Positions 27,613 through 32,782 are shown, counted from the stretch's first letter. The stretch is 64,000 nt of DNA from Escherichia phage pinkbiff (MN850603.1); one strand, 5' to 3'. Notes: generated by a model not told the origin, from the sequence alone. Translations and numbers: made by a program.

Positions 27613-27685
27613 AGAATCCGAAGGGACTTGAACCCTTATAAACCTGTTTTGCAGACAGGCACATAGCCATTTCTGTCACGGATTC
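27613..27685 (-). tRNA. tRNA-Cys (GCA)
   Basis: hand-fold: acceptor gaatccg/cggattc, T-arm aaggg-acttgaa-ccctt, anticodon stem cctgt/acagg with loop reading GCA, discriminator U73. Confidence 0.7.
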
Positions 27686-27692
27686 AAATTGG

Positions 27693-27782
27693 AGGAAGAT
27701 ACCAGACTTGAACTGGTACACCGATTTCTCAGCTACTGGCAGTTTAGCAAACTGCTCCCTTACCTTTTAGGGTTAATCTTCC
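27693..27782 (-). tRNA. tRNA-Ser (GCU), long variable arm
   Basis: acceptor ggaagat/atcttcc, T-arm accag-acttgaa-ctggt, anticodon stem gcagt/actgc, about 90 nt. Confidence 0.65.
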
Positions 27783-27783
27783 A

Positions 27784-28509
27784 TTATTTCTGCAATGCGT
27801 TCTTCATTTCTGGTGTTGCAATAGAATCGATTACACCAGTTTTACAAGCATCATCAAACCAGTCTGGTAAGATACCTGCTAAGAACCCATTGATATTCGT
27901 TTTAAGGTACTCTGCAATAAGGGCAGCTTCTTCTTCAATCATCTGCACAACTTCATCTGCATAAGCTGTAATCTTTGAAATACCTTCATTAATCTTACTA
28001 ACAGCTTGGTTAGCTAAATCAGAAATAGTATCAAGACCTTTATCAATAGCATCCTGTAAGTCACTTAACACATCATTAACACCATCTAGTGTACTGTTAA
28101 TCGTATCCATAGCTTTTTGACCATACTCTGTAGCAACACCCATAATACCACTAAACGGTGTACAGCCAACTTGCTCTCCTGCTGCACCCATAACATTGGA
28201 ATAACCTTTTGCTACCTGCATACGTGATGAGAACTCATCAATGGACTTTTGACCGTAATCTGTCAGCGTCTTAGTAGTTGATGTAGTGCTTGTCAGACTC
28301 GTTGTAAAGCCATTAAGCAGAACTGTTGTAAGTCCAGCAGCAACAAGCTTATCCTTTACTGTAGGGTCTGATACAGAGCTAATAGAGTTTACAAGTGATG
28401 TAGAGGCAGCTACGGTTCCACCGAGAACTGCTGCACCAGTAATAAGGGGATTAGAAAACCCTCTACCGGTTTTTAAGAGATTGAAAATCTCCTTACCTTG
28501 TTCTGTCAT
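27784..28509 (-). CDS. hypothetical protein embedded in tRNA island
   Basis: ORF fits exactly between tRNA-Ser (ends 27782) and tRNA-Phe (starts 28538); ORF track extends to 28581 through the tRNA, so the internal ATG at 28509 (MTEQGKE) is preferred; S/T/G-rich. Confidence 0.35.
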   Translation of the reverse strand: MTEQGKEIFNLLKTGRGFSNPLITGAAVLGGTVAASTSLVNSISSVSDPTVKDKLVAAGLTTVLLNGFTTSLTSTTSTTKTLTDYGQKSIDEFSSRMQVAKGYSNVMGAAGEQVGCTPFSGIMGVATEYGQKAMDTINSTLDGVNDVLSDLQDAIDKGLDTISDLANQAVSKINEGISKITAYADEVVQMIEEEAALIAEYLKTNINGFLAGILPDWFDDACKTGVIDSIATPEMKNALQK

Positions 28510-28537
28510 CTCTTTCATTAAGCACCTTTGAAATTGG

Positions 28538-28611
28538 TAGTCCAGTGGGATTTGAACCCTATTCTCATGTTTTTCAGACACGCGCTTTAACCATATAAGC
28601 TACTTGGACTA
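28538..28611 (-). tRNA. tRNA-Phe (GAA), fold imperfect
   Basis: anticodon stem with loop CUGAAAA, D-arm GCUU/AAGC, T-loop motif present but T-stem and acceptor pairing ambiguous by hand. Confidence 0.45.
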
Positions 28612-28620
28612 TAAATTGGG

Positions 28621-28692
28621 GTGACCTACGGGATTTGAACCCGTATAGACCATGTTCACAGCATGGGTCATTACCATTTATGATAAGGCCAC
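28621..28692 (-). tRNA. tRNA-His (GUG)
   Basis: acceptor gtgacct/aggccac (one G-U), T-arm acggg-atttgaa-cccgt, anticodon stem ccatg/catgg, C73. Confidence 0.7.
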
Positions 28693-28726
28693 ATTTAAGG
28701 CCTCTCGTAAGAACCCTTAGAAGTGG

Positions 28727-28799
28727 CAGCGGCATAAGGATTTGAACCTTAATAGGACAGCTTCAGAGACTGCTGCATTGCCAGTTATGCTATACCGCT
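28727..28799 (-). tRNA. tRNA-Gln (CUG)
   Basis: encoded CCA, T-arm taagg-atttgaa-cctta, anticodon loop CUCUGAA, G73. Confidence 0.65.
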
Positions 28800-28807
28800 A
28801 AATTTGG

Positions 28808-28883
28808 TACTCCATATCGGATTCGAACCGATACATAACACAGATTTTAAGTCTGGCCTCTCTGCCAATTGGAGTAATGGAGC
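28808..28883 (-). tRNA. tRNA with anticodon UAA (Leu-type), class-I length
   Basis: perfect acceptor actccat/atggagc and T-arm atcgg-attcgaa-ccgat; anticodon loop CUUAAAA; variable region only 6-7 nt; A73. Confidence 0.55.
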
Positions 28884-28888
28884 ATTGG

Positions 28889-28961
28889 CGGGGGATGTTG
28901 GAATTGAACCAACTTCTTCGATTTCAAAGACCGAGGTTTTAACCTTGTAAACTAATCCCCT
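28889..28961 (-). tRNA. tRNA-Gln (UUG)
   Basis: T-arm gttgg-aattgaa-ccaac, anticodon stem tcgat/accga loop reading UUG, G73; 1:72 is an A-C mismatch. Confidence 0.6.
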
Positions 28962-28969
28962 TTAAATCT

Positions 28970-29527
28970 TTACTTTCTCAGTGGATGAATAAAGAATGCC
29001 AACATAACTCTTTCCCTTGAGAATGCTCTTTCTTCTGGGACAACACTTTTTAGTTTCCATCCAACATAGATTCTCCAGTAAAACTGTTTACCAAAGACTT
29101 TAATTGACGGAATAAAAGCGAATAATCCCCAAGCATTGTTGTTCCACATTAGGAGATAACCTGTCTGATTATCTTCGGGGTCAGAACTTACGTTGATATT
29201 ACCTTTCCACTTAGTAACATCTTTTACATCTCTTCCTAATACATGGTAAGAGAAGTTATAAGCTTTGTTTCTCCAGAGCCATCCGACTCTCTGCATGTAG
29301 ACACCCAGCTTACCAATCTTTCTAATCTTAGCCCATCTTTTAACGTGACCCTCATCACCATCAATTGGGTTGTCATATGTCTCCATCCATCTGAACCCGA
29401 AAGGTAAGTGTCCTTTCTTCTCACTGTAGAATGGAACTACAAAAGGTGCTAAGATAACTGCTAAGATTGCTGCAAATGGCTCTAACAAAGCTAAGAAAAT
29501 CCATGAAGCATACTTCAAATATCTCAT
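28970..29527 (-). CDS. membrane protein embedded in tRNA island
   Basis: 185 aa; N-terminal hydrophobic segment WIFLALLEPFAAILAVILAPFVV; fits between tRNA-Gln (UUG) and tRNA-Arg (ACG). Confidence 0.45.
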   Translation of the reverse strand: MRYLKYASWIFLALLEPFAAILAVILAPFVVPFYSEKKGHLPFGFRWMETYDNPIDGDEGHVKRWAKIRKIGKLGVYMQRVGWLWRNKAYNFSYHVLGRDVKDVTKWKGNINVSSDPEDNQTGYLLMWNNNAWGLFAFIPSIKVFGKQFYWRIYVGWKLKSVVPEERAFSRERVMLAFFIHPLRK

Positions 29528-29549
29528 CTAAATAGCCTCTTTAAATTGG

Positions 29550-29622
29550 CGCAGGATAAGGGATTCGAACCCCTATTAACAGCTTCGTAGACTGTTGCTC
29601 TATCCATTTGAACTAATCCTGC
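29550..29622 (-). tRNA. tRNA-Arg (ACG)
   Basis: acceptor gcaggat/atcctgc, T-arm aaggg-attcgaa-cccct, anticodon loop reading ACG. Confidence 0.7.
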
Positions 29623-31774: not shown

Positions 31775-31901
31775 ACCGTTGTTTATCATCTTAAGTGCTA
31801 CCATTACACCAACTCGACCTCTGCCGAGTGAAGGAATCGAACCTTCTCCTTTTCTTTACCGAGAAATAGATTGTTTAAGTTTTGCTGTAAACGGTCTTCT
31901 G
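31775..31901 (-). ncRNA. stem-closed element with tRNA-like T-arm (candidate Y-RNA-like/tRNA-mimic RNA)
   Basis: arms ACCAGACCG (31775-31783) and CGGTCTTCTG (31892-31901) are complementary; interior has canonical T-arm gaagg-aatcgaa-ccttc (31830-31846) but no anticodon arm or matching acceptor. Confidence 0.3.
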
Positions 31902-31914
31902 TAAATTTGTTGAG

Positions 31915-31994
31915 CCAGACCAAGTTTTAAATTTTTTTCAAAATTGAATTGGCTTGAAAATATCATACGTACTTGCTGTATTTGGTCTTCTGCC
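31915..31994 (-). ncRNA. stem-closed spacer element, repeat family copy
   Basis: CCAGACCA (31915-31923) and TGGTCTTCTG (31985-31994) arms with TTGCTGTA motif. Confidence 0.25.
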
Positions 31995-32056
31995 CCTTTA
32001 AAGAATACTCGTAAGAACTCTTTAAGGGAGGGGCTAAATAGCCCTCTCAAAATTGG

Positions 32057-32131
32057 CGGTTACGAAGGGATTTGAACCCTCATCATCTCCCGTGACAGGG
32101 GAGTATTTTAACCAAATTAAACTACATAACC
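32057..32131 (-). tRNA. tRNA-Asp (GUC)
   Basis: T-arm aaggg-atttgaa-ccctc, perfect anticodon stem ctccc/gggag with loop reading GUC, G73. Confidence 0.7.
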
Positions 32132-32139
32132 TTTATTGG

Positions 32140-32224
32140 TGTGCCGTGTAGGAGTCGAACCTACCGAGTCTCAATGACAAGGGATTTACAGTCCCCACCG
32201 CTACCATCTACGGGATAACGACAC
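32140..32224 (-). tRNA. tRNA-Tyr (GUA), long variable arm
   Basis: acceptor gtgccgt/acgacac (one G-U), T-arm gtagg-agtcgaa-cctac, anticodon loop reading GUA, about 15-nt variable arm, 3-bp D-stem, A73. Confidence 0.65.
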
Positions 32225-32296
32225 ATTTAATTTCTATTCAGGCTAAGGACTTGCACCTTACAAATCGGTGAGCAATCGCTTCTCTCCTAAATTTGG

Positions 32297-32370
32297 CGGT
32301 TAGTCAGGGATTCGAACCCTGTGCCATTCGCTTAACAGGCGACCGCACATACCTTATGTGCTTCCTAACC
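32297..32370 (-). tRNA. tRNA-Asn (GUU)
   Basis: T-arm caggg-attcgaa-ccctg, anticodon stem tcgc/gcga with loop reading GUU, G73. Confidence 0.65.
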
Positions 32371-32381
32371 ATGTTTAGTAT

Positions 32382-32449
32382 TACCAGACCGTATCTTTCA
32401 ATTTTTCCGCTAAAAATTTAATAAATATTGCTGTAAACGGTCTTCTGTA
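32382..32449 (-). ncRNA. stem-closed spacer element, repeat family copy
   Basis: ACCAGACCG (32382-32390) and CGGTCTTCTG (32440-32449) arms; contains TTGCTGTAAACGGTCTTCTGTAAAT identical to the copy at 31882-31906. Confidence 0.3.
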
Positions 32450-32456
32450 AATTTGG

Positions 32457-32530
32457 AGGCGGGTGCAGGAGTCGAACCTGCCGATACCATGCTAATGAGA
32501 CATGTGAGACGCCCTTTCTCTATACCCGCA
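32457..32530 (-). tRNA. tRNA with anticodon CAU (Met, initiator or Ile2-type; undetermined)
   Basis: T-arm gcagg-agtcgaa-cctgc, D-arm GAGA/UCUC, anticodon stem with loop reading CAU; 1:72 is a U-C mismatch; 3 nt between acceptor and D-stem. Confidence 0.5.
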
Positions 32531-32540
32531 ATTCTTAATG

Positions 32541-32612
32541 ACCAGACCAAATATCTTCTTTGTCCGATTTCGTGTCAGATGAGTAGATTAAGTTTGCTGT
32601 AATTGGTCTTCT
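32541..32612 (-). ncRNA. stem-closed spacer element, repeat family copy
   Basis: ACCAGACC (32541-32548) and TGGTCTTCTG (32603-32612) arms with TTGCTGTAAT motif. Confidence 0.25.
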
Positions 32613-32623
32613 GTCAAAACTGG

Positions 32624-32698
32624 CGTTCCAGAAGGGATTTGAACCCTCAAATATCCACTTTGAAAGAGTGGTGACTTTACCATTTTGTCTACTGGAAC
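32624..32698 (-). tRNA. tRNA-Glu (UUC)
   Basis: perfect acceptor gttccag/ctggaac, T-arm aaggg-atttgaa-ccctc, perfect anticodon stem ccact/agtgg with loop reading UUC, G73. Confidence 0.7.
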
Positions 32699-32708
32699 AT
32701 TAATTTGG

Positions 32709-32782
32709 TCTCTGTTGGAGGACTTGAACCTCCGGCCTTACCGCCCCAAACGGAACGCTCTACCAAGCTGAGCTAAACAGAG
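32709..32782 (-). tRNA. tRNA-Pro (UGG)
   Basis: perfect acceptor ctctgtt/aacagag giving C1:G72, T-arm ggagg-acttgaa-cctcc, anticodon loop reading UGG, A73. Confidence 0.7.

Follow-up and report, generated by a model that had tools for sequence, protein, structure and literature searches.

What lies between the tRNA genes of a phage tRNA island, and does it belong to the tRNAs or to the protein gene that heads the island? The question is raised by a locus of Escherichia phage pinkbiff (MN850603.1), of which a stretch of 64,000 nucleotides (nt) was analysed (hereafter the window; coordinates are counted from its first letter). Positions 27,613 to 32,782 hold a dense series of tRNA genes on the minus strand, and directly upstream of them lies a gene whose product is predicted to adopt the Ro60 fold. 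Four spacers of the island contain copies of a structured RNA module, and the same module accompanies homologues of this gene in other phages and in bacterial and archaeal contigs. We regard it as probable that the locus combines a tRNA island with a Ro60-like/Y-RNA-like system. The initial annotation of this DNA had described a one-strand phage tRNA island with embedded open reading frames (ORFs) and sigma-70-like promoters, a reading that is supported as far as it went; it missed both the Ro60-fold gene and the structured RNA family in the four spacers.

The gene at the head of the island is the following.

32948..34363, minus strand: predicted Ro60-fold protein gene, 471 amino acids (aa), DUF2828 and DUF7788, phrog_850 (Pfam, PHROGs, AlphaFold, Foldseek)

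The product of this gene matches phrog_850 of PHROGs ("RNA-binding protein", E 3e-183), and its sole Pfam matches are DUF2828 and DUF7788. The DUF2828 family is listed in eukaryotes, bacteria, and phages. An AlphaFold (AF2) model built from a 39-sequence alignment reached a predicted local distance difference test (pLDDT) score of 87 and a predicted template modelling (pTM) score of 0.87; it replaced a single-sequence model (pLDDT 45), which was discarded. When the model was compared by Foldseek to the Protein Data Bank (PDB), all 12 of the 12 best matches were Ro60/TROVE structures aligned over their full length (E 8e-9 to 1e-6, TM 0.41-0.63), the top ones including Xenopus Ro, Deinococcus Rsr, and the Ro60 of Thermus phage phiLo. 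As modelled, the protein has the Ro60 fold, consisting of a HEAT-repeat ring and a vWA domain. It also displays a MIDAS-like motif, D279-V-S-x-S283, which aligns to DVSASM of Xenopus Ro and of which D279, S281, and S283 are invariant in the 39 homologues. Homologous mycobacteriophage genes with 33% identity (E about 1e-76) are annotated as "Ro-like RNA binding protein". Homologues occur in 709 phage records, among them Felix O1, KVP40-like Vibrio, Listeria P100-like, Campylobacter CP8-like, staphylococcal, and mycobacterial phages.

The orthologue of this gene in phage Bas63 is gp130. In the PhageMaP preprint, a knockout screen from 2024, gp130 was described as Ro60-like and as countering the Ppl defence. 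The partner Y RNAs of gp130 were not identified in that study, which guessed that "some tRNA genes ... are possibly Y RNAs". In the literature, this preprint was the only link that we found between Felixounavirus and Ro60 or Y RNA, and nothing was found that ties DUF2828, or the motif described below, to phage RNAs. Our analysis locates candidate RNA partners of this widespread phage protein to the nucleotide, and these candidates lie in unannotated spacers and are not the tRNAs that the preprint had guessed.

32543..32609, minus strand: module A; AGACCAA, UUACAGCAA, 43-nt loop, UUGGUCU, G (repeat analysis, folding, detector)
32385..32443, minus strand: module B; AGACCGU, UUACAGCAA, 35-nt loop, ACGGUCU, G (folding, detector; RF01414 20.1 bits)
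31916..31988, minus strand: module C; AGACCAA, AUACAGCAA, 49-nt loop, UUGGUCU, G (folding, detector)
31772..31897, minus strand: module D, YrlA-type (folding, detector, covariation)

Folded singly, the four modules take the same closing structure, namely an outer helix of 4 base pairs (bp), an AGA bulge, and a 7-bp helix of AGACCNN with NNGGUCU, which is followed by a G. When the outer helix and the bulge are included, module A extends to about 32537-32616. A single-stranded UUACAGCAA (AUACAGCAA in module C) directly follows the 5′ helix strand, and the four paralogous modules differ by compensatory changes. Modules A-C span 59-73 nt. Module D is longer: AGACCGU (31897-31891), UUACAGCAA (31890-31882), and a V-like region are followed by a T arm (31846-31830), a closed acceptor-like hairpin, ACUCGGC-agag-GUCGAGU (31829-31812), and a D arm (31809-31795), and the module ends with ACGGUCU and G (31779-31772). 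Its fold has a free energy (dG) of -34.3 kcal/mol and a z-score of -2.9. In general terms, the module is a 7-bp helix of 5′-[A/U]GRNNNN with NNNNYC[U/A]-3′ that contains an invariant G-C pair, with a G after the 3′ strand and a single-stranded (U/A)UACAGCAA leaving the 5′ strand. The loop is variable, with a median length of 40 nt. In our numbering of loci, the loops of many short modules (in L017, L018, L021-L028) contain AGCAA or GCAAA repeated two or three times, e.g., acaauacucaAGCAAuuauuaacuAGCAAcggaac, and these repeats may offer additional contacts, be it to this protein or to a different one.

Two other interpretations of these repeats were rejected. The first guess was that GGUCUGG upstream pairs with CAGAAGACC downstream around the second tRNA-Met, which was contradicted by folding and by other phages; the correct module is CAGAAGACC...GGUCUGG, and the second tRNA-Met lies between two modules. 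The modules were also considered as intrinsic terminators, which was rejected because no U-tract follows them.

Modules were searched for with a relaxed detector that requires a G at helix position 2, NNNCAGCAA, a 7-bp helix, a C at position 6 of the 3′ strand, and then a G. This rule was fixed before the scan of the whole window and was applied unchanged to bacterial and archaeal contigs, with the opposite strand serving as the control. A covariance model built from loop-trimmed modules (R1) misaligned true modules and ranked terminator-like hairpins first; it was dropped for the motif-plus-stem rule because it cannot bridge the variable loops. In the window, the detector found exactly four modules, all of them within the island and on the strand of the Ro60-like gene, 340-1180 nt downstream of it.

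The linkage between module and gene was assessed in 78 non-redundant viral loci with a homologous gene, and in an independent set of 80 bacterial and archaeal contigs. Of the sites near the gene that were selected by the motif only, 31 of 50 on the strand of the gene have an exact 7-nt Watson-Crick complement 15-200 nt downstream, vs 0 of 24 on the opposite strand; the chance of such a complement is 1.1% per motif match. The relaxed detector found 93 modules on the gene strand of the viral loci vs 1 on the opposite strand. Modules were present in 53 of the 78 loci, and in 46 they were within 1 kilobase (kb) of the gene. Under the same rule, the bacterial and archaeal contigs displayed 51 modules on the gene strand vs 3 on the opposite strand. 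Phages whose proteins are only 33-52% identical still have the module beside the homologous gene and on its strand. Klebsiella phage FBKp34 (52% identity) has the exact 9-mer beside the gene, with four copies downstream, one of which is YrlA-type. Aeromonas phage LAh_6 (43% identity) has the exact 9-mer in four tandem copies upstream of the gene, and mycobacteriophage Gabriela has three modules directly after the gene, one of them YrlA-type.

The sequences of these modules point to selection on an RNA structure. In 38 modules, the G at helix position 2 (G6), its partner C36, and G38 after the 3′ strand are invariant, and none of them was required in the selection. The helix strands stay complementary through double substitutions across loops of 10-228 nt, and the sequence of the helix is free to vary. 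It is very likely that the modules are selected RNA structures that are linked to the gene. The same data bear on the explanation that the repeats act as DNA, be it as a miniature mobile element, as a site bound by a protein, or as a target of recombination or of a homing endonuclease, so that their RNA structure would be incidental. The elements are repeated, and HNH homing endonucleases are inserted in this region in Felix O1 relatives, both of which would suit such a role. However, an explanation at the level of DNA does not account for double substitutions that keep complementarity while the helix sequence varies, for a near absolute orientation to the gene in the viral and the bacterial and archaeal sets, or for the conserved T-loop and D-loop residues typical of folded tRNA that are described below. 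We consider it improbable in the extreme.

In many loci, the modules accompany the gene without any tRNA within 6 kb (L013, L014, L017, L018, L021-L023, L025, L027, and L028 are among them), which indicates that the association is with the protein gene and not with tRNA operons. This argues against the modules being processing or punctuation signals of a polycistronic tRNA precursor, i.e., RNase III or RNase E sites that are unrelated to the protein. An invariant single-stranded CAGCAA and tRNA-like inserts would also be unexpected at a cleavage site, and no module occurs in the window outside the island. The attraction of the processing explanation is that the modules are stem structures placed between tRNAs, that long tRNA precursors generally need such signals, and that a separate 24-bp hairpin of the island (31626-31775) resembles an RNase III substrate. 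On balance, we judge it very unlikely. In another locus (L026), a phage-contig tmRNA (8605-9054; 75 bits in Rfam) is found some 3 kb downstream of a Ro60-like gene and module, with a tRNA cluster after it.

Several observations weigh against a partnership of the modules with the Ro60-like protein. With our detector, no module was detectable in 25 of the 78 viral loci and in 52 of the 80 genome loci; either the partnership is not universal or the handle, i.e., the helix together with its motif, diverges. The 100% pairing in the pair-count alignments is partly by construction, because these alignments were built by requiring complementarity; the unbiased tests of linkage are the motif-only complement count and the strand counts in the viral and in the bacterial and archaeal sets. 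None of the modules scores at the gathering level of an Rfam family, and the GNCGAA(N)G or CGAA of known bacterial and phage Y RNAs is absent from modules A-D; the sequence reads ...ACAGAAGACC..UUACAGCAA in its place. The protein has no match to Pfam TROVE. A phmmer search against PDB sequences gave no match; the best that a profile achieved for Ro60 was E 1.1 (1yvp, vWA region). Sigma-70-like matches in the region are not above the level of shuffled sequence (18 vs 15±4), and PhageMaP found the tRNAs to be mostly dispensable on laboratory strains. Finally, many loci carry a single module 30-40 nt past the stop codon of the gene, which would fit a 3′ untranslated region (UTR) element.

This last point leads to the explanation that the modules are cis elements of the Ro60-like gene's own transcript, such as a 3′ or 5′ UTR stabiliser or an autoregulatory site, and not free Y-like RNAs. 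Other loci in which the module lies 100-300 nt upstream of the start codon can be read in the same manner. Yet the modules of the window are 340-1180 nt downstream of the gene, beyond two promoter-like sites and interleaved with tRNAs, and there are three to four tandem copies in L004, L003, and L102. Some modules carry a complete tRNA-like domain, and the lack of a U-tract after the modules also speaks against this role. Moreover, autoregulation would still imply that the protein binds the modules. We regard a role purely in cis as unlikely. Overall, we lean towards direct binding of the modules by the Ro60-like protein. Homologues with 33-35% identity (the Lachnospiraceae/Clostridia-type contigs L112-L164, and the 25 viral loci) mostly displayed no detectable module. 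In these homologues, the handle may have diverged, or a different RNA may serve as the partner.

Part of the modules are built around a tRNA-like domain. The loop of module D consists of a T arm, a closed acceptor hairpin, and a D arm, which is a circularly permuted tRNA-like domain, and the same three elements are carried by at least eight modules from at least seven lineages. In a segment-trimmed alignment of eight YrlA-type modules from seven lineages, 23 of 23 pairs in the four helices hold and 19 of the 23 change on both sides. The helix of the D arm, which was not used for selection, is also fully paired among them. The invariant residues of these modules correspond to U8, G10, G53, T54, Psi55, C56, A58, and C61 of tRNA. 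A CCA is retained in four of the acceptor-closing loops, which points to a tandem duplication of a tRNA gene as the origin of the domain.

Other loci arrange the same parts differently. In L041 (5734-5834), the module helix encloses a whole tRNA-Thr-like gene. Meanwhile, L004 (3494-3610) has a full tRNA body in which the anticodon loop is replaced by a GGAGUCU-gag-AGAUUCC-UUACAGCAA-hairpin, that is, by helix and motif closed with a triloop, and L002 (8003-8113) is a tRNA-Asp with a similar insert. One of these chimeras of tRNA and handle is called "tRNA-Pro with intron" by ARAGORN. These topologies are circular permutations of one design, and all share a unit in which a helix strand AGRNNNN continues 3′ as single-stranded UUACAGCAA. 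The handle thus occurs alone, around a permuted tRNA-like domain, around a whole tRNA, or inserted in a tRNA, which suggests that it is a general tag by which tRNA-shaped RNAs are coupled to the Ro-like ring. Near the gene, 221 tRNAs are on its strand and 0 on the opposite strand, and a general tag would explain why this gene heads tRNA clusters.

Permuted tRNAs are known elsewhere: circularly permuted tRNA genes occur in the red alga Cyanidioschyzon, and permuted tmRNA is also known. In these, as in the modules, the 3′ half (T arm and 3′ strand of the acceptor) precedes the 5′ half (5′ strand of the acceptor and D arm). Unlike the permuted tRNAs of Cyanidioschyzon, the modules have the helix-plus-motif handle in place of the anticodon arm, and nothing suggests that they are processed to a normal tRNA.

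A close parallel is found in bacteria. Bacterial YrlA Y RNAs possess a domain that resembles tRNA and has a T arm, an acceptor-like stem-loop, and a D arm (Chen et al. 2014, PMC4201824). The bacterial systems of Rsr with YrlA or YrlB resemble the locus described here in that small RNAs lie adjacent to a Ro60-fold gene on the same strand (YrlA within about 4 kb), in the order of T arm, closed acceptor stem-loop, and D arm that module D shares with YrlA, and in that the shorter modules without the domain resemble YrlB. They differ in that the protein here has DUF2828/DUF7788 and not Pfam TROVE as Rsr does, in that the presumed protein-binding region is the helix with UUACAGCAA and not GNCGAA(N)G as in YrlA, and in that the RNAs here are embedded in a large tRNA operon. 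Against the YrlA family (RF02553), module D had no match at E<=10 and 11 loci had no match at the gathering level. On the mycobacteriophage copy (L003), RF02553 matched only the T/acceptor-stem/D core, with 21.4 bits vs a gathering score of 69. By analogy, the modules would work like YrlA and YrlB, yet they are outside that family as it is currently defined.

Phages with Ro60/Y-RNA pairs have been described. Thermus phage phiLo encodes a Ro60 with Yrl1 and Yrl2 (PMC12135203), and mycobacteriophages, CcrColossus, and Bacillus phage G have a phage Ro60 with Y-RNA-like RNAs (Chen et al. 2014, PMC4201824). For phage Ro60, hijack of the host PNPase or defence escape has been proposed (PMC12135203). 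Systems of the phiLo type share with the present locus a phage-encoded Ro60-fold protein and adjacent small RNAs, and phiLo Ro60 is among the best structural matches. In the known pairs, however, the proteins are canonical TROVE proteins and the RNAs were identified from a CGAA motif and their stem-bulge-stem shape, whereas the family described here is defined by a different handle. Its range of topologies is also wider than that of known phage Y RNAs, as it includes a whole tRNA in the loop and a module inside a tRNA. Leaving aside whether the 22 phages of Chen et al. 2014, e.g., the cluster-L mycobacteriophages, overlap with it as YrlA, the module family is apparently undescribed.

A different resemblance emerged from the comparison to Rfam. 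When searched against all of Rfam, the four modules of LAh_6 had the Dictyostelium Class I RNA (RF01414) as their top family over the full length (19-26 bits, E 0.008-0.37). The same family also matched modules B and D of the window and the mycobacteriophage copies. The scores of modules ranged overall from 13 to 26 bits, none reached the gathering score of 41.5, and one exceeded the 25-bit and stem candidate criterion of Kjellin et al. Class I RNAs are about 60 nt long (42-65), end in a terminal helix of 6 bp in which an invariant G pairs with the C of CUGU, carry CCUUACAGCAA after the 5′ strand, and have been described as unique to Dictyostelia (PMC7919456). Both they and the phage modules have a length of about 60 nt, a helix of 6-7 bp that joins the ends, an invariant G-C pair, and a 3′ CUG(U), and in both a motif resembling (CC)UUACAGCAA adjoins the 5′ strand, the rest being variable. 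Modules A, B, and D of the window match the 11-nt CCUUACAGCAA at 9 of 11 positions (UUACAGCAA), while L004 5850 and the modules of the L017/L021 type match at 11 of 11. Among the modules, only the core CAGCAA of CCUUACAGCAA is invariant; it corresponds to positions 6-11 of the Class I motif and includes the near-invariant C6, C9, A10, and A11. The fifth near-invariant position of Class I, U3, varies in the phage modules. Class I RNAs are encoded in dictyostelid genomes behind a DUSE promoter, whereas the modules come from unrelated organisms, those of the window from a phage genome, and have no DUSE promoter. The known direct binder of Class I RNAs is the RRM protein Rnp1A, which is not Ro60-like.

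This resemblance is unexplained, and a real connection is doubtful. In its boldest form, which we find similarly doubtful, the phage modules and the dictyostelid Class I RNAs would be the same kind of RNA, in which a terminal helix with its fixed G-C pair and a single-stranded (CC)UUACAGCAA form the docking site for a DUF2828 Ro60-fold protein. On this view, amoebae would have a Ro-like protein that has escaped recognition, Class I RNAs would be its Y-RNA-like partners, and they might have been horizontally acquired from bacteria or phages eaten by amoebae. Alternatively, and less boldly, the two kinds of RNA may have converged on a shared logic of protein recognition. The mechanism of Class I RNAs has been open since 2004, and the likeness gives a concrete protein candidate to look for.

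Based on these findings, we postulate the following course of events during infection. Polycistronic precursors would be transcribed from the sigma-70-like promoters, which are the most likely origin of the tRNAs, and host tRNA-processing enzymes would cut them into free tRNAs and modules, so that the modules would be expressed as discrete RNAs. The Ro-like ring would then bind the helix-plus-CAGCAA handle, and the loops or the tRNA-like domain could engage a second factor. This second step is proposed by analogy, since Y RNA tethers Ro60 to PNPase and YrlA is recognised by tRNA enzymes. The resulting RNA-protein particle may act on RNA in the infected cell, through protection or remodelling or through surveillance of tRNA or other RNA, and it may recruit a host nuclease or repair enzyme, as in the Ro60/Y-RNA/PNPase and Rsr-YrlA-RtcB systems. 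It may also contribute to escape from Ppl, and such a particle fits the report that gp130 of Bas63 counters this defence. All of this can be tested directly in an E. coli phage that is tractable.

The surrounding island is almost certainly the already known tRNA gene island of a Felix O1-like myovirus (Felixounavirus), and on its own it would be textbook for these phages. In nucleotide comparison, a 5.6-kb region is 95-97% identical and 97-100% covered in more than 200 Felix O1-like records, and at least 80% of it is covered at 90-97% identity by 233 records. The records of relatives annotate the same tRNAs, in agreement with the island described here. In the window, the tRNA genes called by ARAGORN number 26; every one of them is on the minus strand and falls in the interval 27610-32782. 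Such a series of 26 co-oriented tRNAs within 5.2 kb is far beyond chance. The canonical genes, supported by both ARAGORN and the Rfam tRNA model unless noted, are:

32706..32782, minus strand: tRNA-Pro (UGG); C1:G72, A73
32621..32698, minus strand: tRNA-Glu (UUC)
32294..32370, minus strand: tRNA-Asn (GUU)
32137..32224, minus strand: tRNA-Tyr (GUA); ARAGORN; in Rfam, tRNA-Sec clan only, 29.6 bits
32054..32131, minus strand: tRNA-Asp (GUC)
31546..31621, minus strand: tRNA-Lys (UUU)
31465..31541, minus strand: tRNA-Met (CAU) no. 1
31388..31463, minus strand: tRNA-Ile (GAU)
30975..31051, minus strand: tRNA-Arg (UCU)
30648..30737, minus strand: tRNA-Ser (UGA), 3′ end CCU
30315..30392, minus strand: tRNA-Leu (UAG)
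30232..30307, minus strand: tRNA-Lys (CUU)
30150..30225, minus strand: tRNA-Ala (UGC), G3:U70
30069..30143, minus strand: tRNA-Gly (UCC), U73
29986..30061, minus strand: tRNA-Thr (UGU)
29816..29890, minus strand: tRNA-Val (UAC)
29737..29814, minus strand: tRNA-Leu (CAA)
29547..29622, minus strand: tRNA-Arg (ACG)
28886..28961, minus strand: tRNA-Gln (UUG)
28805..28883, minus strand: tRNA-Leu (UAA)
28724..28799, minus strand: tRNA-Gln (CUG)
28617..28692, minus strand: tRNA-His (GUG), C73
28535..28610, minus strand: tRNA-Phe (GAA)
27690..27782, minus strand: tRNA-Ser (GCU)
27610..27685, minus strand: tRNA-Cys (GCA), U73

Two further genes are less regular:

32454..32530, minus strand: tRNA-Met-like (CAU) no. 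2, divergent (ARAGORN)
30751..30833, minus strand: atypical tRNA-Trp-like gene, anticodon CCA (folding, covariation in four phages)

The initial annotation had folded about 27 tRNA genes by hand, all on the minus strand and covering most amino acids. ARAGORN recovered most of them, with the implied anticodons, and its 26 genes cover 19 amino acids. The Rfam tRNA model placed 24 of the 26 at or above its gathering score (33-65 bits), the exceptions being tRNA-Tyr (32137-32224) and the second CAU tRNA. The 3′ CCA is encoded by 25 of the 26 genes, tRNA-Ser (UGA) having CCU. The identity elements that had been read from the ends of the genes, i.e., C1:G72 and A73 in Pro, U73 in Cys and Gly, C73 in His, and G3:U70 in Ala, are all present.

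The 27th gene lies between tRNA-Arg (UCU) and tRNA-Ser (UGA). Its A1:U72 pair, G73, 3′ CCA, and CUCCAAA anticodon loop are features of E. coli tRNA-Trp. Its cloverleaf displays an enlarged D region and a C31.A39 mismatch. It was missed by ARAGORN and by the Rfam tRNA model, and matched only the tRNA-Sec clan of Rfam (23 bits). In four diverged phages, 19 of 19 pairs are kept and 7 are changed on both sides, while slid controls gave none. In the distant Yersinia phage P778, the element is the sole conserved part of its spacer. The covariation of this gene indicates that the count of about 27 was right and that all 20 amino acids are covered. The records of relatives give no annotation for it, and in public Felixounavirus records neither this gene nor the four modules are annotated.

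The second CAU tRNA sits exactly between modules A and B. Its features include a U1.C72 mismatch, U37, and a D stem of 3 bp. Of all calls in the island it is the weakest, as even at E<=10 the Rfam tRNA model gave no match. The mismatched 1:72 pair noted in the initial annotation is real, but the usual identity elements lend no support to the suggestion of an initiator- or Ile2-type tRNA: the gene has no run of three G-C pairs by the anticodon loop and has U37.

The island also contains three ORFs:

27784..28509, minus strand: ORF of 241 aa, DUF7217/phrog_2114, conserved (Pfam E 5e-89, PHROGs)
28970..29527, minus strand: ORF of 185 aa, DUF7338/phrog_2143, hydrophobic N-terminus, conserved (Pfam E 7e-62, PHROGs)
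29613..29720, minus strand: small conserved ORF of 35 aa with a GGAGAG ribosome-binding site (phrog_13848 E 1e-15)

The first two had been placed correctly between the tRNAs, and the third was absent from the earlier list. The tRNA clusters of Felix O1 and other Felixounavirus have the same tRNA order and the same embedded ORFs, and nothing essential differs. Bas63 is without tRNA-Arg (ACG) and the 35-aa ORF (29547-29736 here), and its DUF7338 ORF directly precedes tRNA-Leu; this stretch is an indel polymorphism within the island. The HNH endonuclease insertions that Felix O1 has in the region are absent from the pinkbiff genome.

Four consensus matches to sigma-70 promoters and one hairpin may delimit transcription:

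34401..34430, minus strand: sigma-70-like match TTGACA-18-TAAAGT upstream of the Ro60-like gene (consensus match only)
32901..32929, minus strand: sigma-70-like match TTGACA-17-TAATAT, 10/12, inside a 12-bp hairpin (32906-32937)
32809..32838, minus strand: sigma-70-like match TTGACA-18-TAAAGT with TG, just upstream of tRNA-Pro (consensus match)
31344..31372, minus strand: internal sigma-70-like match TTGACA-17-TATAGT, 11/12 (consensus match)
27513..27572, minus strand: long hairpin GCCCUG...CAGGGC followed by U6 (read from the sequence)

Promoters had been proposed at 32901-32929 and 31344-31372; both positions are exact, and a promoter role is plausible and unproven, given the background in shuffled sequence reported above. 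The 12-bp hairpin at 32906-32937 (minus strand) begins 11 nt past the stop codon of the Ro60-like gene and holds the -35 hexamer of the 32929..32901 site; termination and initiation signals may be coupled here. The hairpin at 27513-27572 is likely the terminator of the island, judging by its sequence, and a second terminator-like site lies at 27430-27447.

Several other spacers on the minus strand are structured. The stretch 31626-31775, directly 3′ of module D and before tRNA-Lys, folds into a very stable structure of 145 nt, closed by some 24 bp of helix (dG -48 kcal/mol, z -5.3). Either a processing site of the RNase III type or a further structured RNA could account for it, and in Bas63 the matching stretch is annotated as small plus-strand ORFs. 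The spacer 31052-31343 (about 290 nt), bounded by the best internal promoter match on one side and tRNA-Arg (UCU) on the other, has weak tmRNA-like Rfam matches, and the spacer 30393-30647 (255 nt) has several strong hairpins and a spurious MIR473 match (32.7 bits). Both may encode further RNAs. The spacer 29891-29985 (z -3.0) contains GAAGACCGU, which resembles a decayed 5′ strand of the module. Meanwhile, the spacer 32225-32293 (z -2.6) contains the T-arm-like AAGGUGCAAGUCCUU (repeat family D16) and is possibly a tRNA remnant. Downstream of the island, a large minus-strand ORF (25564-27180) appears from its translation to encode a terminase large subunit; if so, the island lies just upstream of the packaging genes.

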